Origin: Alphaproteobacteria bacterium
GTDB lineage: Bacteria; Pseudomonadota; Alphaproteobacteria; SP197
Direction of reading: 5' to 3'
DNA: 64,000 nt
Assembly (NCBI GenBank): GCA_964291265.2
Contig: OZ219747.1
Location: 2,464,001-2,528,000 of the forward strand
The notes beneath the pieces are model-generated. The model was given only the letters and a program-made list of their open reading frames with translations. It did not search any database and was not told the DNA's origin. A program made the position numbers and the translations under genes. Below, in pieces: positions 12,429 to 21,941 of the stretch (position 1 is the stretch's first letter; each line of letters starts with the position of its first letter).

Positions 12429-14822
12429 ATGCATGAAGAATCAAAACACAACGCGCGACTCGACCCGCTTGCCGATCTCATCGATTCCGTCGATCGGCCC
12501 GGCGACTACTGTGCGCATGGCCAAGTCCTTGCTCCGATGCCGCGAATCCGGGTGGGCACGGGCGAGATCCTGTCGTTTCCCATCCCTCCTGCGCAGGCGG
12601 TGGCGCTGATCGAATCGGCTTCAAGGGCGCCCTATGGCCGTGGTCCGGAGACGATCGTGGATCGCACGGTTCGCGATTGCTGGCAGATCGAACCCGGTCG
12701 GGTCGAGGTGGGCGGTCGTGCATGGCCCGAGACGCTGCGCGACATCCTGAGGCGGACCGCCGAAGGCTTGGGCTACTCGTCGGAGGCGGTGTCGGCGAGC
12801 CTGTACAAGGTTCTGATCTACGAAAGGGGCGGGTTCTTCGCACCGCACCGCGACACGGAAAAAACCGACGGGATGGTCGCCACTCTGGTGATTTCGTTGC
12901 CCGTGGCGGGCACCGGTGGAGAACTGGTTGTCCGTCACCGGGACCGGGAAACCACCGTCGACATGCTAACCGACGAACCCTCGGAACTGGTGTATGCCGC
13001 CTTCTATGCGGACTGCGAGCACGAAATCCACCCCGTGACCGAAGGATACCGAGTTTGTCTGGTCTATAATCTGGTGGTCGAGGAAGGCAGGAGCGTTCCG
13101 ACGAAGGCACCGGATTACGGCACCAAGGTGGCCGCCATTGCGGATGAGCTCGACGCCCGTTTCCGCGACCCCGAATCAGCCGCGAAGCTCGTCTGGATGC
13201 TTGAGCACGACTACAGCGAGGCCGGACTCTCGTTCCGCACCCTGAAGAACACGGACAGCGCCGTCGGACGGGTGATGATGGAGGCCGCCCGGCGTGCCGG
13301 TTGCGTGCTGCACGCTGCAACCGTGCACATCGAGGAACACGCCTCGGTCATCTGGTACGGCGGCTGGGAGCACGAGACCGAAGATGTCGATGAGAGCGAC
13401 TACGATTTGGTGGAGACTGTCGATTCCCTCCGTTGGCTCGATGGTTGGGTGTGCGCCGACGGTATGTCGGCGGAGTACGGCAAGCTGGAACTGTGCGATG
13501 GCGAACTGATGCGGGCGGACGAGCTTGCAGACGAGGAGCCCGACTCGCATCGCCTGTTCGAAGCCACGGGAAACGAGGGGGCCAGTGTCGAACGACTCTA
13601 CCGTCGGGCCGCGCTGGTGGTCTGGCCGCAGGCGGAGAGCATGAAGGTGCTGGCTCCTGCGGGCGGTGGCGCCCTGGTGTCGTTTGTGGAGGCCGAACGG
13701 GATCGGGAACGGGCAGGGACGGGTACTGGCCGTTCGGTCCGGGACTGGGCCTGCGAATTGGCGAAGGCATGGCCGAAACCCTCACCCACTCTCCATTACC
13801 TGAAGGGCGGCATCGGATCGTGGCGGGAACACTGTGTGAAGGCCCTGCAACTGCTGCACGCGATCGGCAACCGAAGCGCAGTGGCGCACTTTCTCGAAAC
13901 CGTGGTGCTGCCTTACTACGGGGCTGCCATGAACGATGCGTTGGTGGCCGTCATCTCACGAGAAGACGCAAGGGAGATGGGTGTTCTCTTGGACCGACTG
14001 GTGCGTTCCCAACTCGGTCGGGAGATCGATGGTATCCTGAACCTCATATGCATCCTCTGCGAGCGATTGGACGGTGGGAGAGACACGCCTTGGCGGCCGG
14101 TTCTGCGGGAGACCGTACTGGTTGCCTGTGCGTCGCTTCACGCCCTTTGCCGACCTCGCGATGATGCCCGGGGCACGAGGACGGAGAACCGCATGGTGCC
14201 TGTTTCCGTAGACACTCTACAGGCGCTCTTTCGCCTGGTGTGGCGGTACGATCTGGAGCAGCAGGCGTCCGAGGCGGCATCCTTCTTCAGGGCTCAACCC
14301 GATCTGCTTCCTCCTGACCGGAACGTGCCGACCCTGCTGGCCGCTCTGCACACAGAGCACGGCAATGGCCGAACCGGAACCAGCGCGGCGTTCGAGGCGC
14401 TGTGGCGGCACGGGGCCGCGTTCCTTTTGTGCCGGAGCAGCCATCCACCCGCGCCGCCAAAGGACTGGACCCTTCCGATAGATGGCCTCCGGTGCTCGTG
14501 CGAGCGGTGCGACGCTTTGCGTCAGTTCTGCCTCGACGGCGAAGCGCGGGTTCGGCATTTCGCGGTTCGGCAGGACTTGAGAAGCCACCTCAGGCAGCAG
14601 ATCGAAACCAGCGGAATCGACATGTGTTACAAAACCGAGAGGCGGGGCAACCCGCACCGTCTCGTTTGTACCAAGACTCGTGCCAGCCATGAAAATCGCA
14701 TGCAACAGTACAACGGCGACATCGTCGAAATGCGCCGGCTGATAGGGCTGGCAAGGAGTGTGCCCGGTGTTGCCGGCGTGGCGGAGGATCTGAGTGCAGC
14801 CGTCGGGCGGGCGCAGAGTTAG
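12429..14822 (+). CDS. Large 2OG-Fe(II) oxygenase-domain protein (~800 aa)
   Basis: LYKVLIYERGGFFAPHRDTEK (HxD), DCEHEIHPVTEGYRVCLVYNL (distal H and R); C-terminal CSCERC motif; start could be 12396. Confidence 0.85.
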   Translation: MHEESKHNARLDPLADLIDSVDRPGDYCAHGQVLAPMPRIRVGTGEILSFPIPPAQAVALIESASRAPYGRGPETIVDRTVRDCWQIEPGRVEVGGRAWPETLRDILRRTAEGLGYSSEAVSASLYKVLIYERGGFFAPHRDTEKTDGMVATLVISLPVAGTGGELVVRHRDRETTVDMLTDEPSELVYAAFYADCEHEIHPVTEGYRVCLVYNLVVEEGRSVPTKAPDYGTKVAAIADELDARFRDPESAAKLVWMLEHDYSEAGLSFRTLKNTDSAVGRVMMEAARRAGCVLHAATVHIEEHASVIWYGGWEHETEDVDESDYDLVETVDSLRWLDGWVCADGMSAEYGKLELCDGELMRADELADEEPDSHRLFEATGNEGASVERLYRRAALVVWPQAESMKVLAPAGGGALVSFVEAERDRERAGTGTGRSVRDWACELAKAWPKPSPTLHYLKGGIGSWREHCVKALQLLHAIGNRSAVAHFLETVVLPYYGAAMNDALVAVISREDAREMGVLLDRLVRSQLGREIDGILNLICILCERLDGGRDTPWRPVLRETVLVACASLHALCRPRDDARGTRTENRMVPVSVDTLQALFRLVWRYDLEQQASEAASFFRAQPDLLPPDRNVPTLLAALHTEHGNGRTGTSAAFEALWRHGAAFLLCRSSHPPAPPKDWTLPIDGLRCSCERCDALRQFCLDGEARVRHFAVRQDLRSHLRQQIETSGIDMCYKTERRGNPHRLVCTKTRASHENRMQQYNGDIVEMRRLIGLARSVPGVAGVAEDLSAAVGRAQS

Positions 14823-15071
14823 GCCGCTTGATGTGTTGAGGTCCGTCCGGAGGATTCTGGTAGGTGACGGCCGGAGCGCCGTCACTGAGCCATCGCTTCA
14901 GTTGAACGGTTCTCGGCATGCCCGTTCGGCCCAAGGTGGGTTCAGCAGACGGGCAGTGTTCCGCACTCCGGATCGTCCTGTGTCGTAACTACCCAGGTAC
15001 CTCGTCAGGTCTGAGTCTGTGTTGACGTTGGGTGCGGTTTTGGTGTCGTCGGTTTGTTGATTCTGCGCGTC

Positions 15072-15100
15072 TTGACTTACTAGGCCGGTGAGCCTATGAG
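15072..15100 (+). promoter_or_regulatory. Putative IS-internal promoter for methyltransferase-transposase
   Basis: TTGACT-17 bp-TATGAG, followed by a CCCTC/GAGGG hairpin over the SD. Confidence 0.45.
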
Positions 15101-15128
15101 TTGCCCTCTGTCATGAGGGGAGCGGCCG

Positions 15129-15798
15129 TTGGGGTACTTCGGATCGAAGGCGACGCCGGGTTTGTGCCAGGCGCTGATTGCGATGATGCCGCCGCACTCT
15201 GTCTACATTGAGAGCCATCTGGGGGGCGGCGCGCTGATGAAGCGCAAGCCTGCGTCTGTGCGCTCGATCGGGATTGACCGTGATGAGCGTGCGCTTGAGG
15301 CCTTTGAGTGCGCTTATCCGGTGGAGTTGGTGCACGGCTGTGCTCACTCCTTCCTGGCTTCGTTCCCGTTTCTGGGTCCGGAGCTGGTCTACAGCGATCC
15401 GCCCTATCTGCACGCGACGCGGCGTTCGTCGCAGCGCTACCGCTTCGAGTACGAGGAGGCGGACCATGTTGCGCTCCTTGAACTGCTCAAGGGCCTGCCC
15501 TGTCAGGTGATGGTCTCGGGCCACCCGTGAAGCGCTCTATGACGATCTTCTGGCGGGCTGGCGCCGGGTGGCGCTGCAGGTGACGACCCAGGCCCAGGTG
15601 CGGACCGAGGTGGTATGGTTCAACTTTGCTCCCGACCGGGTGCACTGGTCGCGCTACGCGGGGCGGAACTTCACCGCCCGCCAGTGCATCAAGCGCAAGG
15701 CGGCCAACTGGGGGCGGCGCTATGAGGCCATGCCGCCGGGGGAACGTCTGGCCGTGCTGGCGGCGATCATGGCCGTCGAGGCCGGGGAGGGTTCGTGA
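15129..15798 (+). pseudogene. N6-adenine DNA methyltransferase (Dam/D12-like), interrupted at 15528
   Basis: YFGSK, ESHLGGGA (SAM binding), YSDPPY (catalytic); after TGA 15528-15530 the sequence continues in the +1 frame as ALYDDLLAGW...RTEVVWFNF. Confidence 0.85.
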
Positions 15799-17336
15799 CC
15801 GTCTCGCGCTGGCGCGAGGACCTCGCCGCCCATGACGAGGCCTTCGTGGGCCTGCAGGATCTGTTCAGTCCACACTCCTTCGCCGTGACTGCCGTCAAGG
15901 CCCTCCGGGATTGGGGCCAGGGGATGTTGCGCCTGAGCGTGGCGCTGGTCGGGGAGATCGAGGCGCTGGAGCGGGAGAACACCGGCTTGCGCGAACGGAT
16001 TGATGCACTCGAGCGCAGCGCCGCGCTCGACAGCTCCACCAGCTCCAAGCCACCGGCCAGCGACGGTCCGAAGAAGAAGAGCGGAAACCGACAGAAGCGC
16101 ACCCGGAGCCAGCGCGGCAAGTCCGACAGGCCCAGTGGCGGTCAGCGCGGCCACGAGGGAGTCACCCTGAAGCAGGCCGAGAACCCGGACCACGTCGTCG
16201 ATCATGCCCCATCCGCCTGTAAGGGCTGCGGCGCGGCGCTGTCGGATGATGACCGTCACGCAGAACCCGTCTGTCGGCAGGTCTTCGACATGCCCGAGCC
16301 GCAGCCCCTCGAGGTCACCGAACATCGCGCCCATCGCTGTCTCTGCGCCGCCTGCGGCGCCGTGACAACAGCCGCCTTCCCGCACGGCGTGAGCGCCCCG
16401 GTCCAGTACGGGCCGCGCATCACCGCCTGGGTGACCTACCTGTTGCACGCCCAGTTCATTCCCGAGAAGCGCGTCGCCGAGGTCATGAGCGACCTCTCCG
16501 CCGTCAGGATCTCAACCGCCACCATCGCCGCCATGGGCAGGCGCACCGCCCGGCGCTTCGAGAGCTTCCTCGATCATGTCGCAGAGATCATCCGCACCCA
16601 AGCCCCGGTCAAACACCTCGACGAGACCGGTATCCGCATCAACGGCCAGACCCACTGGCTCCATGTGCTGTGCACCCCCTTGCTCACCATCCTGCGCATC
16701 GCCACCGGGCGCAAACACATCGACGAGACACTCAACGGCATCGTCATCCATGACGACTTGGCCACTTACTTCACTCTCGAGGGCGTGCGCCACGGTGCCT
16801 GCAACGCCCATCGCTCGCGCGAACTCCAGGCTCTGATCGAGATCGAGAAGGAAGACTGGGCCACCGCCATGCACAGGCTCCTCACCCGTGCCAACAGAGC
16901 CGCCCGCTTCGCCCGCAAGAACGACCGCGACATCCCCGCTTCACTCCTCGCCCGCATCTCGCAAGCCTGGGACAGGATCCTCGAGCAGGCCATCGCTTCC
17001 CACGAACAGAGGCCGCCGCTCCAGCCCGGAAAGCGCGGACGACGAAAACGCCGCATCGGCCACAACCTCGCGCTTCGCCTTCAGAAGCACAAGGACGGCT
17101 GCCTGCGCTTCCTCACCAACCCGCAAGTCCCGTTCTCCAACAACCAGGCCGAGCAAGACTTCCGCATGAGCAAGCTGCGCCAGAAAATCTCGGGCGGCTT
17201 CCGATCCATGCAGGGCGCATGGGACTTCGCCAAGCTGCGATCCGTCATCTCCATCGCCCGAAAACAGGGCTGGAATGTCCTCGAAACACTGGCCCACCCC
17301 GATCCCATACAGCTGATCCCGAAACTGCGCTTCTGA
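15795..17336 (+). CDS. IS66 family transposase (TnpC-like)
   Basis: Coiled coil, SSKPPASD, CxxC...CxxC zinc finger, HLDETG, CNAH..REL, NNQAEQDFR..K..QKISGGFRS. Confidence 0.95.
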   Translation: MTVSRWREDLAAHDEAFVGLQDLFSPHSFAVTAVKALRDWGQGMLRLSVALVGEIEALERENTGLRERIDALERSAALDSSTSSKPPASDGPKKKSGNRQKRTRSQRGKSDRPSGGQRGHEGVTLKQAENPDHVVDHAPSACKGCGAALSDDDRHAEPVCRQVFDMPEPQPLEVTEHRAHRCLCAACGAVTTAAFPHGVSAPVQYGPRITAWVTYLLHAQFIPEKRVAEVMSDLSAVRISTATIAAMGRRTARRFESFLDHVAEIIRTQAPVKHLDETGIRINGQTHWLHVLCTPLLTILRIATGRKHIDETLNGIVIHDDLATYFTLEGVRHGACNAHRSRELQALIEIEKEDWATAMHRLLTRANRAARFARKNDRDIPASLLARISQAWDRILEQAIASHEQRPPLQPGKRGRRKRRIGHNLALRLQKHKDGCLRFLTNPQVPFSNNQAEQDFRMSKLRQKISGGFRSMQGAWDFAKLRSVISIARKQGWNVLETLAHPDPIQLIPKLRF

Positions 17337-17943
17337 CATCCCTCCTCGGCGCCATCAGACCGCAGCCATCAATCCACCTCCCGTCAGGACTCGGCGAAAT
17401 CAGACCTGGGCAGTTACCCTGTGTCTGCCTTGATGCCCGAATCCAGCTGCACTCGACAGGATGTCGGTGGGTCGGGTCGCTCTCAAGACAAGCGATCAGA
17501 GTGCGGCGTTGTTTGTTCGCCCGCCATTGTGCGACGTGCGCACCCGATGCCTTCGCGGAATCGCTCGCCGGGTGCGCACAGTGTGCCGTGGTCTGGACAT
17601 GGCTTTCGAGCGAGCAACTTCCCGATCGTCGGCAGGTGTATCGTCGGGGGCCAGGGCGCGGAACGCAGAGCTGTGGCGTAGCTCATGGAATCACGCATCG
17701 TCCAGGTTCGTGCAGGCCATGACAACGGCTCCGGGAGACCATCCACCAAGCGCGTGCGGCGGCGGAGCCAGTCGCCGTGGGAAGCACCGGAAGCGCGTTC
17801 GATCGCCTCGCACATTGCGCTCGTCTCGGCCTGTCCGGGGCTGGCGCCCTTGTCTGAACTCCTGCTCCTGAGCGTGGTGCGTGGGCAGGCGCAGGGTCTC
17901 GTTCCGGAGTGCAATGTTGCCTGCCGGACCACTGGGCTTGTCT

Positions 17944-18414
17944 TCACTCCTGTTCGCTGCGTTCCTGATCAAAGCGGCGACGACCCAGACGCGCCTGATA
18001 GTCATGCCCGCGCCAGCCCGCGCGGAACAGCCACTGTTCTTCCGGTTGCCGTCGGGCGAGCGCCGGGGAGACTTCCACCTCGTCGAAGCCGCTGCGCCGG
18101 ACCATGGCGTACTGATCGGCGAGGATGTGGCCTGCCGCACGCAGCCGGCCCCGGTAGCCCAAGAGCCGCAGGCAGCGAGCCAGCGAGAAACCGCGGCCGT
18201 CCGTGTGCGACTGGAATGAAACGCGAATGAGTGCAATGCGCTCGAAGTGTGGCACGAAATCCTCGGCCGTCGCCGTGTTCTCGACATCGAGCGCAACCCC
18301 CTCAGGCAGGGCAGCGTGATCGTCCTCTCGACTCCAGCGGACAAACTCGCCGTGCCAGTCGTCGTCATGAAAACCGGTGTCGCGAACGAGAATCCCGGAG
18401 ACCACGCTTCCCAC
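17944..18414 (-). CDS. DUF934 domain protein (sulfite reductase-associated)
   Basis: F..HTDGRGFSLARCLRLLGYRGRLRAAGHILADQY..RRSGFD; position after cysI. Confidence 0.85.
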   Translation of the reverse strand: MGSVVSGILVRDTGFHDDDWHGEFVRWSREDDHAALPEGVALDVENTATAEDFVPHFERIALIRVSFQSHTDGRGFSLARCLRLLGYRGRLRAAGHILADQYAMVRRSGFDEVEVSPALARRQPEEQWLFRAGWRGHDYQARLGRRRFDQERSEQE

Positions 18415-18416
18415 GG

Positions 18417-20086
18417 CTAGCGCCCTGCGATCGGAGCGGTGTCGGGATAGAGCGCCGCCTTGAAGGGCTGCATGCCGACGCGCCGGTATGTTGAGAGAAA
18501 GGCCTCGTCCTCGTTGGACCGGAGGTCGAGGTAGGCATCGATCAACCGCTCCACGGCAGGGATGATGTCGTCTGCCGCGAAGCCAGGGCCGGCGCGTTCA
18601 CCGAGCGCGGTCGTTTCCGTTCCGTCGCCACCGAGAGTGATCTGGTAGTTCTCTGCTCCGGCGCGGTCGAGACCAAGAATGCCGATGTGCCCGACATGGT
18701 GGTGCCCGCAGGCGTTGATGCAGCCGGATATCTTGATCTTGAGATCGCCGATCAGGCGCTCGTCCCCACGCTCCTTCATCCGGGTGGCGATGCCCTGGGC
18801 AATCGGGATGGAGCGGGCGGTAGCGAGGTTGCAGTAGTCCAGCCCGGGGCAGGCAATGATGTCCGATGCCAGCCCGACATTGGCGGTCGCGAGATCCGCC
18901 TTGCGCAGTGCTGCATGAAGCGCCGGCACATCGCGCTTGTGCACGTGGGGCAGAATGCAGTTCTGTTCATGGCTGATCCGGATTTCGTCATGGCCATATC
19001 GCTCCGCCAGGTCGGCGATGACGCGCATCTGTCCTGCGGTGGCATCGCCCGGCGTGGCGCCGTGGGTCTTGAGCGAGATGGTGACGATTGCGTACGCGGG
19101 ATTCCGGTGCGGGCAGAGGTTGGAATCGACGAACGATCGGAAAACCGGGTCGTGCGCAAGCGTCGCGTCGAATGCTCCTGTCGGCGCCTCGATGAATGCC
19201 GGCGCCGCGAACATCGCGCCGATGCGCTTCAAGAGAGCCTGGTGCGTACCGCGGAACGCCTTGCGTTGAATCAGGAAGCGTTGCTCGACACGGTCGCGGA
19301 AGGCCTCGAACCATGCTCGTTGACCGTGATCTTGATGCGCGCCTTGTACTTGTTGTCGCGGCGCCCGATGGTGTTGTAGACCTGCAGGATGGACTCGACG
19401 TAGGGTAGCAGGTCAGCCTCAGGCAGGTAGTCGCGGATGACCGAGCCTATCACCGGGGTGCGCCCGAGCCCGCCGCCCACCACAACCTCGTAGCCGATCT
19501 CATCCGCCTCATTGCGGATCATGCGCAGACCGATGTCATGAGCGCGGGTCACGGCACGGTCGACCGGGGAACCGCTCACTGCGATCTTGAACTTTCTCGG
19601 CAGGAACGCGAATTCCGGGTGATCCGTCGACCATTGCCGGAGCAGTTCGGCGGTCGGGCGGGGGTCGGCGACCTCGTCGGCGGCCGCACCGGCAAAATGG
19701 TCGGCTGTAATGTTGCGCACACAGTTGCCGGACGTCTGGATTGCATGCATCCCGACGTCCGCGAGAGCGTCGAGAATATCCGGCACGTCCTTGAGCCTGG
19801 GCCAGTTGAACTGGACGTTCTGACGCGTCGTGAAGTGTCCGTAGCCCTTGTCCCAACGTTCCGCGACTTGGGCCAGCTGGCGCATCTGCCGACTGTCCAG
19901 CGTTCCGTAAGGAATGGCCACACGAAGCATGTAGGCGTGCAACTGCAGGTAGAGCCCGTTCATCAGTCTGAGGGGCTTGAACTCCTCTTCGGTCAGGGAA
20001 CCTTCAATGCGGCGCTCCACCTGCTGGCGGAACTGCGCGACCCGTCTGCGTACGAATTCCCGGTCGAAGCTGTCGTATCTGTACAC
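18417..20086 (-). pseudogene. cysI: Nitrite/sulfite reductase hemoprotein, split by a 1-bp deletion near 19309 (possibly a sequencing error)
   Basis: RLMNGLYLQLHAYMLRVAIPYG, HFTTRQNVQ, ACPGLDYCNLA, ISGCINACGHHH; adding one base after GAG CAT GGT joins the two ORFs. Confidence 0.9.
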
Positions 20087-20089
20087 GCG

Positions 20090-20392
20090 TCAACTCCCCG
20101 CCTGCTTGCCATGGCAGTAGTTGGAGGGCCCGGTCGCGCGAAGGACCTCCCGGATGTGAACCGGTTCTGGTCCCCGGTGACCTTCACGCACAGCCGCCAT
20201 CAGATAGGGCCCGACAACGGCATCTTCTTGCGCCTCGGCTGCTGCAAGGCTTCGGTGCGCTTCGCCTTCGTCCTCGAAGAGGTAGGCATCAACCGGGCGG
20301 CGCGTCCAGGCGCCATCGGGCGCAAGATAGACCACGCCGCCATCGAAGAGGTCGTTCGCGGTGAGAACGCACGGCTTGAAGGCGCGGGCCAT
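20090..20392 (-). CDS. DUF2849 domain protein
   Basis: VLTANDLFDGGVVYL...VVGPYL...HIREVLRATGPS; conserved position between cysG and cysI. Confidence 0.85.
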   Translation of the reverse strand: MARAFKPCVLTANDLFDGGVVYLAPDGAWTRRPVDAYLFEDEGEAHRSLAAAEAQEDAVVGPYLMAAVREGHRGPEPVHIREVLRATGPSNYCHGKQAGS

Positions 20393-21795
20393 CACACGGC
20401 CTCCCGACTGACCTCGAGGTCCGCCTGCCCCTTGCGCATGGCGGCGCGAGGCAGGACTCCGAGCATCAAGACCACCGGCCCCCCAGGACGTGTCTCGTCC
20501 AGCGCGTCGGGCAGATCGAGAAGCGTCGTTGAGACGATCCGCTTGTCCTGGCGCGAAGCGTTCTCGATGATCGTGATCGGCGTCGATGGCGCAGCCCCGC
20601 GCATCAGAAGTCGTCCGCGCAGGAAGGCGGCCGCGCGCTTGCCCATGTAGACCGCGGCGACGGATCCGGGCCGGGCAAGGGTGGTCCAGTCATGCTCGGC
20701 GAACCCGTCAACGTCACGGGCCGCGATGAGGCGAAGCTCCGAGTTGCGACCGCGCCGCGTCAGCGAGACACCCATGTCCGCAGCCGCGCCAGCGGCCGCC
20801 GTGATTCCCGGAACAACCTCCCAAGGGATGCCCGCGGCCTCCAGCACCTGGATCTCTTCGTCCAGCCTGCCGAACACCGCCGGATCGCCGGACTTGAGGC
20901 GGATCACGTGCCCTCCTTCCCGGGCGCGGCGCACCAGCAGCGCGTTGATGCGCGCCTGCGACCACGACGGGCCGTATCCGGACTTGCCTGCGCAGATGCG
21001 TTCCGCTTCCCGTCGTGCGAGCTCAAGCACCTGTACCGAGACCAGTCGGTCATGCACCACGATGTCCGCCTCGTGCAGACGGTTGCGCGCCTTGAGAGTG
21101 AGCAGTTCCGGGTCGCCTGGCCCCGCGCCCACGAATGAAACCAGACCGGAAGGGCGCGTCGCGGCGGCAGTCTCATCAAGCAGCGAACGGAGCGCTTCCA
21201 GGGCGCCGTTCCTGCCCTCCCTGGCATAGCTCCGGGGGCCGCGCCGGAAGAAGTACTCTGACCAGAACGCCCGTCGCATCCGGCCCGAAGGCACGCCTTC
21301 GCACCTGCTCCGGAATACCTGTGCGATGCGCGCGAGCGGTCCCAGGGACATCGGCAGTTGCGCCTCGATTGCCGCCTTGAGGCTTCGGGCCAGCACCGGG
21401 GCGGTCCCTTCCGTTCCGATGGCCACCGTGACCGGATCGCGGTCCACGATGGCGGGCGTCGTGAAGTCGCTGTCCTTGAGATTGTCGACGATGTTGACGG
21501 GAATCCTGCGCCGCCTCGCCAGTGCGCCAACGCGCGCATCCTCCGAGGCATCGTTGCTTGCGCAGTAGACGAGCGCGGCACCGTCGAGGTCGCCGGTCAC
21601 AACGCGGCGCCAGACGTGGCGCAACGCGCCGTCGCGGTGCCACGCCAGGATCTGCTGATCCGGGTCGGGACCGAACACCGAGATCTCGGCGTCGCTCTTC
21701 AGCAGCAGGCGCAGCTTGGCCACCGCAGCCTGCCCGGCGCCAGAGATGACAGCCCGTCGGCCCGCGAGGCGGAGGAAGATCGGGAAATGCTGCAC
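20392..21795 (-). CDS. cysG: Siroheme synthase
   Basis: HFPIFL N-terminus, DFTTPAIVDRDPVTVAIGTEG, VGAGPGDPELLTLKA, RLKSGDP; GTG start inferred. Confidence 0.95.
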   Translation of the reverse strand: MQHFPIFLRLAGRRAVISGAGQAAVAKLRLLLKSDAEISVFGPDPDQQILAWHRDGALRHVWRRVVTGDLDGAALVYCASNDASEDARVGALARRRRIPVNIVDNLKDSDFTTPAIVDRDPVTVAIGTEGTAPVLARSLKAAIEAQLPMSLGPLARIAQVFRSRCEGVPSGRMRRAFWSEYFFRRGPRSYAREGRNGALEALRSLLDETAAATRPSGLVSFVGAGPGDPELLTLKARNRLHEADIVVHDRLVSVQVLELARREAERICAGKSGYGPSWSQARINALLVRRAREGGHVIRLKSGDPAVFGRLDEEIQVLEAAGIPWEVVPGITAAAGAAADMGVSLTRRGRNSELRLIAARDVDGFAEHDWTTLARPGSVAAVYMGKRAAAFLRGRLLMRGAAPSTPITIIENASRQDKRIVSTTLLDLPDALDETRPGGPVVLMLGVLPRAAMRKGQADLEVSREAV

Positions 21796-21941
21796 GGCGA
21801 CTGCCCGTTGTCGTTTTCTCAAGGGGTCCGACAACTGTACGGTTTTTCTGGACCTGAGACAACACTCCTATACAATTGGGATGATTTTCACGAATACGAG
21901 CGCGTTACGGAAATATCTTTACGCACGTTGCGGAGGTGGAG

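Follow-up and report, generated by a model that had tools for sequence, protein, structure and literature searches.

The window analysed here is a stretch of 64,000 nucleotides of an alphaproteobacterial genome (GCA_964291265.2, contig OZ219747.1, positions 2,464,001 to 2,528,000), and within it an insertion sequence (IS) of the IS66 family carries, ahead of its transposase gene, a gene for a Dam-like protein with a DPPY motif that is homologous to the plasmid protein Upf31. We suggest that this gene and the promoter in front of it form a portable autorepressor cassette, whose product would bind a palindrome in its own promoter and shut off the transcript shared with the transposase, as a negative-feedback brake on transposition; this we consider somewhat probable, and that the cassette is a regulator in one way or another, either by binding alone or by methylating its operator, we consider highly probable. 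The cassette keeps one conserved anatomy, with covarying half-sites, in IS66, IS701 and IS4 elements, among which it is portable; its protein has the fold of Dam and has lost the target-recognition domain, and its gene is under purifying selection.

The promoter-operator pattern and the element that carries it

Two sets of loci were compared, both made up of the closest relatives of the gene, namely the best 80 of 489 confirmed metagenome loci, and 76 genome loci taken from the best 80 of 578 confirmed, these last coming from few genomes and not being independent. Upstream of the Dam-like gene, 72 of the 80 metagenome loci have the pattern TTGAC-N3-RTAG-N10-CTAY. When anchored on TTGAC, all 72 show TAG at columns 10-12, with the first base of the left half-site being A in 64, G in 8 and C in none; CTA stands at columns 23-25 in about 70 (C in 71, T in 72, A in 71), and T at column 29 in 68. 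The spacing in these loci is TTGACA-N17-TAYGCT, and a TT[GT]AC box is present at 73 of the 76 genome loci. All eight GTAG left halves are paired with CTAC right halves. As the half-sites covary in this way and base pairing within the spacer is no more frequent than chance (15-28 of 72), we read the palindrome as a protein site and reject an RNA hairpin. Of the eight remaining metagenome loci, three retain the palindrome with a -35 box that is altered or cut, another two are truncated, and in three (L184, L188 and L225) no palindrome is present; the pattern is missing from three of the four metagenome loci without a downstream transposase. Neither this pattern, at 15072-15100 of the window, nor the relationship to Upf31 was part of the initial annotation, and both were found on follow-up.

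The element that carries the cassette is a real and recently spreading insertion sequence of 2433 base pairs (bp), at 14985-17417, and because eight long copies with the same ends occur in the genome it is not a chance arrangement. Its ends and its duplication were located from the sequence; the 14-bp ends differ at one base and begin with GTAA, as in the IS66 family (the ends of ISDge4, given in the available part of PMC12898284, serve as the comparison), and the 8-bp target duplication belonging to the family flanks the window copy. All coordinates of the initial annotation (element, duplications, both genes and the break) hold, as does its description of GTAACT-type ends and an exact 8-bp duplication around only two genes, which fill the element and do not include a cognate endonuclease of the restriction-modification type. 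Pfam and NCBIfam profile searches of the frames of the element gave no match to tnpA or tnpB, and a terminator scan of the element found nothing. The element is intergenic, starting 162 bp past a gene for an 808-amino-acid protein with a 2OG-Fe(II) oxygenase domain, and the corresponding empty site is seen in one contig of run X2 that joins 14976 to 17418, a single contig whose short side has 34 letters.

Table 1. Features of the IS66 element, in positions of the window
Feature	Position	Strand	Remarks
Left target-site duplication CCTGTGTC	14977-14984	.	Exact match to 17418-17425; empty-site joint in one X2 contig
Left terminal inverted repeat GTAACTACCCAGGT	14985-14998	+	13/14 identical to right end; common to all family-A copies
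Predicted -35 box TTGACT	15072-15077	+	TTGAC anchor of the pattern
Left half of predicted operator, CTAG	15080-15083	+	Consensus RTAG; only plus-strand TAG in the element
Right half of predicted operator, CTAT	15094-15097	+	10 bp from left half; overlaps the -10 box
Predicted -10 box TATGAG	15095-15100	+	17 bp past the -35 box; final T missing; consensus TAYGCT
Shine-Dalgarno-like GAGGGGAG	15115-15122	+	Ahead of the TTG start; from sequence
Upf31/Dam-like gene, N-terminal 133 codons	15129-15530	+	TTG start; motifs X, I, II and DPPY; premature TGA 15528-15530
Out-of-frame rest of Upf31/Dam-like gene	15531-15798	+	End of catalytic fold and predicted two-helix C-terminal domain
Shine-Dalgarno-like GGGGAGGG	15784-15791	+	Of the transposase; from sequence
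Transposase, IS66-family DDE, 513 amino acids, intact	15795-17336	+	PF03050, DUF6444, zf-IS66, NF033517
Right terminal inverted repeat GTAACTGCCCAGGT	17404-17417	-	13/14 identical to left end
Right target-site duplication CCTGTGTC	17418-17425	.	Exact match to left duplication

The transposase scores well against its profiles (PF03050, E 1e-38; NF033517, 276.8 bits vs. a cut-off of 180), and D276, D320/D321 and E453 are its putative acidic motifs. The stop of the Dam-like gene overlaps the transposase start (GTGA, 15795-15798), as had been described. The transposase also has a GGAGG of its own, 4 nucleotides ahead of its GTG start, and because of this separate ribosome-binding site its expression should survive the frameshift in the gene before it. 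That frameshift deprives the window allele of the C-terminal helical domain. The remainder at 15531-15798, which ends with TGA at 15796-15798, is matched at 100% identity in sister copies by residues 135-222 of P0001, an intact natural allele of 222 amino acids (G000:C2:161879-162547). The break at 15528, already part of the initial annotation, is no error of the window copy, because the same broken allele stands in five of the nine related copies that cover the place. A programmed frameshift or read-through at 15528 was ruled out, as the other four of the nine copies have a plain open frame and all sampled homologs are single-frame. Contigs of runs X1-X3 have the one-base-shorter, open form in part of their depth (a single study, in which X1 may be the source sample).

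Genomic copies and transposase partners

The genome contains eight long copies of the element (A0, the window copy, to A7) and a partial one (A8), together family A, at 95-98% identity. Exact 8-bp duplications, differing between copies, flank three of the eight (A0, A2 and A4), A1 has 8 bp plus one extra base, and A3, A5, A6 and A7 have no target duplication. The Dam-like gene is broken in A0, A1, A2, A4 and A5, and open through that place in A3, A6, A7 and A8; copies with the same ends, different duplications and an intact gene, for which a search had been advised, were found, three of the eight long copies being intact in this gene. An unbroken transposase of 513 amino acids is present only in A0-A2, all three with the broken gene, and in the three long copies with an intact Dam-like gene the transposase is frameshifted or interrupted. 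A1 and A2, both with the broken allele, are identical across 2442 bp at different target sites, which is most simply explained by one transposition of a broken-gene copy. The left half-site is CTAG in A0-A4, A6 and A7, and ATAG in A5, A8 and a left-end remnant. The expanded family-A lineage is thus one with a changed half-site and, in most copies, a broken gene, and the changed half-site may mark an escape from repression, although equivalents of its C occur in 3 of the 72 right half-sites and in the upf31 promoter.

Several family-A derivatives and insertions were also seen. Two miniature forms, at G000:C2:517829-517960 (132 bp) and C2:1456114-1456457 (344 bp), have both ends and no target duplication. 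The transposase of A7 is interrupted by a 2.7-kb insertion (G000:C2:1375030-1377786), whose ends and antisense frames resemble, by eye, a group II intron; its insertion site corresponds to 16592 of the window, the same junctions appear as loose ends in run X2, and another half-copy starts there, so that this intron-like insertion may target family-A elements. A6 contains a 5.3-kb insertion (G000:C2:2257314-2262632) with frames resembling IS21 istA/istB by eye, and the last bases of a 246-bp insert in A5 are the reverse complement of those terminating the A6 insertion, of which this insert is perhaps a miniature.

A second IS66 element of 2456 bp, family B, has different ends (GTAACTACTCACCCC) and is exemplified by L012 (G000:C2:3816123-3818578), with 11 further end-paired copies. 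Its transposase is 33-34% identical to that of family A and its Dam-like gene 63%, its operator is GTAG-N10-CTAC, and 8-bp duplications flank 12 of 12 end-paired copies. In all 8 of the uninterrupted copies neither gene is broken, and the family is far more uniform than family A. A paralogous empty site is present in the genome, and one copy is nested in another on C1.

That the gene travels with the element, as had been proposed, is borne out by its position within the ends of multiple copies, and its homologs do systematically adjoin transposases. Seven of the 80 metagenome loci have fewer than 100 bases downstream; of the 73 assessable, 66 match a representative transposase (two being the representatives themselves, typed by Pfam, and one matching a C-terminal remnant only) and three match weakly, which gives 69 of 73, with four lacking a match. 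At the 76 genome loci, 70 match the window transposase, two are IS701 and four are unassigned, with paired IS66 ends at 59 and an 8-bp duplication at 44 of the 59. The cassette stands before IS66 transposases only 21-37% alike, and it is also enclosed by two IS701 elements (L086 and L087, with 14-bp-type ends and 5-bp duplications) and by an IS4 element (L200, with 23-bp ends and a 9-bp duplication). A 3631-bp IS66 element of genome G005 (e.g., L229:350-3980) has the cassette and tnpC on one strand and, on the opposite strand, tnpA with a frame that by eye is tnpB-like; six of its 11 copies were fetched, and they are near-identical, with 8-bp duplications in five of the six. The gene order of this element is unusual, with tnpA and the tnpB-like frame at the far end, inverted and convergent with the cassette and tnpC.

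In an unrooted tree of 51 chosen proteins, in which the branch of pBP136 is long, the 45 non-plasmid rows form one branch (100/95), and transposase labels change 15 times on the protein tree vs. a minimum of 11. The ratio of nonsynonymous to synonymous substitutions (dN/dS), by simple counting over seven pairs sharing one query genome, is 0.12-0.17 for the Dam-like gene vs. 0.30-0.38 for the transposase, and the Dam-like gene is under the stronger purifying selection. The loci L184, L188 and L225 are nested in the IS-linked branch and have lost promoter pattern and transposase with the frame still open (dN/dS of 0.19 for L188 vs. L225), a possible case of domestication. Separately, non-IS homologs recur beside a gene resembling 8-oxoguanine glycosylase, at L182:3676-4527 (Pfam Ogg-HhH), L233:597-4718 (G167) and L096:2414-5594; in two of these, L096 (by annotation) and L233 (by eye), convergent genes are QueC-like and PfkB-like. 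The arrangement may possibly be a defence or base-modification locus under the same switch.

The Dam-fold protein and its relation to Upf31

The predicted structure of P0001 has a mean predicted local distance difference test score (pLDDT) of 77, and residues 1-167 of the model match residues 8-270 of E. coli Dam with Z 18.1 and a root-mean-square deviation of 2.4 over 149 residues, at the top of the folds listed, followed by T4 Dam (Z 17.5) and DpnM (Z 17.1). The protein shares with the Dam/DpnM (D12, alpha-class) N6-adenine methyltransferases the fold and the motif order X-I-II-IV, with E28, G32, G34, D50 and DPPY at 90-93. It differs from them in that the model has no target-recognition domain between motifs II and IV, some 85-90 residues being missing, and motif I to DPPY (E28 to D90) takes 62 residues vs. 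about 150 in Dam and DpnM. It also has an extra pair of predicted C-terminal helices (181-199 and 203-219, pLDDT about 60), with invariant R184, R189, E205 and R206. DPPY is present in 120 of 120 close homologs and, among 150 representatives of more distant clusters, which include some fragments, in about 140-146; the motif I and II residues are kept. Profile scores fall on both sides of the cut-off, P0001 being below the Pfam and NCBIfam cut-offs (PF02086: 14.3, cut-off 22), with 34 for the family-B protein, 19 for the G005 protein and 26.8 for Upf31. A sequence search of the PDB with P0001 gave only DpnM (E 0.77), and the ESM Atlas search only automatic "DNA methylase" names.

P0001 is 43.7% identical to Upf31 (upf31.0) of the IncP-1beta plasmid pBP136 over 98% of its length (E 8e-52), with W198 aligned to W194 and L78 to the invariant L76, and the two proteins agree in size, in the C-terminal helical domain and in these conserved Trp and Leu residues. 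By sequence the gene belongs with Upf31, and by domain content its product is not a Dam; judged by analogy, it probably works like Upf31. Upf31 represses its own promoter from 4.76 to 0.09 XylE units, or about fifty-fold, and requires its C-terminal domain for this, according to the available part of the report by Elg et al. 2025 (PMC11997246). There, Upf31 gave no GATC protection, no methylation signal in sequencing of the single-molecule real-time (SMRT) kind and no discernible kinetic pattern, the SMRT test being motif finding in E. coli ER2796 with only an expression vector, and binding of Upf31 to the inverted repeats of IncP-1beta plasmids was proposed. The terms transposase and insertion sequence have no occurrence in the available text of that report.

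Both systems have an inverted repeat in their own promoter, placed alike relative to a TTGAC box before it. In upf31 the promoter sequence, of identical register, is TTGACA-N2-ATCG-N10-CGAG, with an ATCG half-site where the IS cassette has RTAG, and the IS cassette differs further in heading a transposase inside insertion sequences and in lacking the KorB circuit. Five perfect ATCG-N10-CGAT repeats lie in the 5.7-kb upf31 locus. The class of site tracks the class of protein: the loci of four of four proteins with YPGGKG have an ATCG-type site, and of five other plasmid and phage homologs four have ATAG-type sites and none an ATCG-type site. SEN5 has neither type, the Synechocystis locus has one of each, and on plasmids the site accompanies the gene without an adjacent transposase. 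Plasmids L091, L094 and L095 have two or three CATAG-N10-CTAT sites clustered round the homologs, like the ATCG-type clusters round upf31. Among 400 genomes drawn at random from the phylum there were two near-full-length matches, both of the YPGGKG class, and by eye no transposase is apparent among the neighbouring frames of these two loci.

Mechanism, alternatives and known systems

In the mechanism that we propose, one transcript from the TTGAC-N17 promoter would span the Dam-like gene and the transposase, and the protein, dimerised by way of its C-terminal helices, would bridge RTAG-N10-CTAY and sit over the -10 box. Entry into a naive host without repressor would then lead to a burst of transposition, and with rising copy number the repressor would rise and damp all copies in trans. 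The window copy itself would be repressor-less, either relying on the protein from intact copies or escaping it.

Several observations weigh against this proposal. The CTAG left half-site of the window is found in none of the 72 metagenome loci. A strict sigma-70 scan of the element did not detect a promoter. The -10 box ends in a base other than T in the window and in all 18 distinct promoters from the genome loci, and most alphaproteobacterial promoters analysed in the available part of PMC7703639 lack this -7 T, which may account for the negative scan if the host is alphaproteobacterial like the named records with the closest elements. Family-A copies other than A1 and A2 are mosaic, so that the broken allele may owe its spread to gene conversion. 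The identity to Upf31 is only 44%, and the half-sites of the two differ. For the window element repression, the shared transcript and operator binding are predictions by analogy, and the invariant catalytic motifs do not have the look of a dead enzyme. The Dam-fold protein, moreover, is not IS-specific: its plasmid and P2-like phage homologs (42-53% identity) are mostly not IS-linked, none of the seven examined lying clearly within an IS and one having an IS1380 gene 200 bp downstream, and in L182 the cassette precedes the Ogg-HhH gene instead of a transposase. Cassettes before non-transposase genes count against both regulation by binding and regulation by methylation.

The second of these, tentative but of the same regulatory role, differs from autorepression by binding in its chemistry: the protein would be an active methylase of very narrow specificity, with its own bipartite operator as the sole target. 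The adenine of CTAY would be -11A of the -10 box, its methylation would silence the promoter, and after replication or entry into a new host the site would be hemi- or unmethylated and the promoter briefly on. The catalytic and S-adenosylmethionine-binding motifs are invariant, and only one adenine is common to both site classes, that of C[TG]A; it stands at column 25 and is base 2 of the -10 box, although the -10 box alone also explains the conservation of this column. CfrBI methylase silences its own promoter through one site, as described in the available part of bioRxiv 10.64898/2025.12.04.692298. In 4.6 Mb some 4 occurrences are expected of a site with 10 specified bp and some 70 of one with 8, and the SMRT motif search with Upf31 could perhaps have missed such a site. 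Against this stand the lack of any discernible kinetic pattern for Upf31 in that report and the exclusion, for Upf31, of a methylase of the 5-bp half-site, which would have about 4500 sites a strand. Carried further, and no less speculatively, three unrelated IS families would have recruited one self-encoded epigenetic switch, a Dam-fold dimer without a recognition domain that methylates only its operator at the -11 adenine. Transposition would fire after replication or entry into a naive host, and it is similarly conjectural that broken-gene or altered-operator lineages cheat on the repressor of their siblings. If this is true, the repeat clusters of IncP-1beta plasmids, so far without explanation, would by the same reasoning be sites of Upf31.

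An adenine methylase of low specificity, protecting the DNA of the element or of the host from restriction or altering the host methylome, with the palindrome only limiting its expression, is an unlikely reading. A Dam catalytic fold with intact motifs and no recognition domain would fit, as would the annotation as methylases of homologs from conjugative plasmids and P2-like phages; but overexpressed Upf31 gave neither methylation nor GATC protection in the available text of PMC11997246, and the fixed, co-oriented place directly upstream of unrelated transposases would be left unexplained. The host genome, furthermore, has 48 TAG-N10-CTA sites, of which 28 are in IS promoters and the other 20 fall within the 4-30 of other spacer lengths, and the genome-wide motif count shows no operator enrichment outside IS promoters, as a host regulon would have it. 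The suggestion of a host-wide methylase role is not supported, in view of these counts, the missing recognition domain and the silence of Upf31 in methylation tests. Nor is the idea that the ends of the element are methylated, since its single copy of the conserved site is at the promoter and the ends have none.

That the protein replaces TnpA/TnpB as an accessory factor of IS66 transposition is very improbable. It does occupy the upstream slot, with the GTGA overlap in family A, and it had been annotated as standing instead of tnpA/tnpB; but the G005 element carries the gene, tnpC, tnpA and a tnpB-like frame together, the gene is present in IS701 and IS4 and before highly divergent IS66 transposases, and copies with the broken allele show intact duplications, by which this explanation is largely refuted. 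Least probable of all is a neutral cargo, captured once and hitch-hiking, as the single IS-linked branch apart from plasmid and phage homologs, the break in five of nine family-A copies and the insertion in A5 as a sixth sign of decay might suggest, for the selection estimates contradict it, with a dN/dS below that of the transposase, and the gene is intact in 8 of 8 full-length family-B copies and was kept through repeated changes of transposase partner.

The classical IS66 group has tnpA and tnpB, from which the window element differs in having neither. The ISBst12 group of IS66, as described in the available part of PMC12898284, consists of elements with a single open reading frame; compared by this description, the window element is like it in the IS66 transposase, the imperfect GTAACT-type ends, the 8-bp duplication and the absence of tnpA/tnpB, and unlike it in adding, before the transposase, a conserved second gene with its own promoter-operator pattern. 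By these group descriptions it is an IS66 member that fits neither group. Host Dam controls the transposase promoters of IS10 and IS50. Both this control and the autoregulation of CfrBI resemble the cassette in combining a methylase-type protein with a site overlapping the promoter of a mobile or selfish gene; unlike them, the window element encodes its own factor, has a long bipartite site and has no endonuclease. Our literature search, which left ISfinder, TnCentral and REBASE outside, found no description of this architecture, so that prior cataloguing is possible; the nearest mention, in the available part of PMC9208149, is an IS1-methyltransferase neighbourhood. New here are the lineage whose gene is broken and whose operator is changed, next to relatives that are intact, the finding that the gene can coexist with tnpA/tnpB, and the correspondence between protein class and site class.

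To our knowledge, detailed accounts of how insertion sequences hold back their own activity exist for few families, and for IS66 the matter is barely known. Because one cassette in IS66, IS701 and IS4 offers a defined promoter, a predicted operator whose half-sites covary, and naturally occurring alleles both broken and intact, copy-number control becomes testable by a simple reporter. Many proteins annotated as "DNA adenine methylase" (2728 matches) may be regulators, and the definition of the site allows the negative methylation result for Upf31 to be re-examined base by base.

Around the element, the 808-amino-acid protein upstream (window 12396-14822, plus strand) has its oxygenase domain, PF13640, at residues 138-224, with the remainder free of Pfam matches. 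A gene for an MqsA-like antitoxin with a helix-turn-helix lies at 9633-10193 on the minus strand. Downstream, on the minus strand at 17944-21834, genes resembling by eye those for siroheme synthase, sulfite reductase and DUF934 were seen, with a possible frameshift near 19232-19271.

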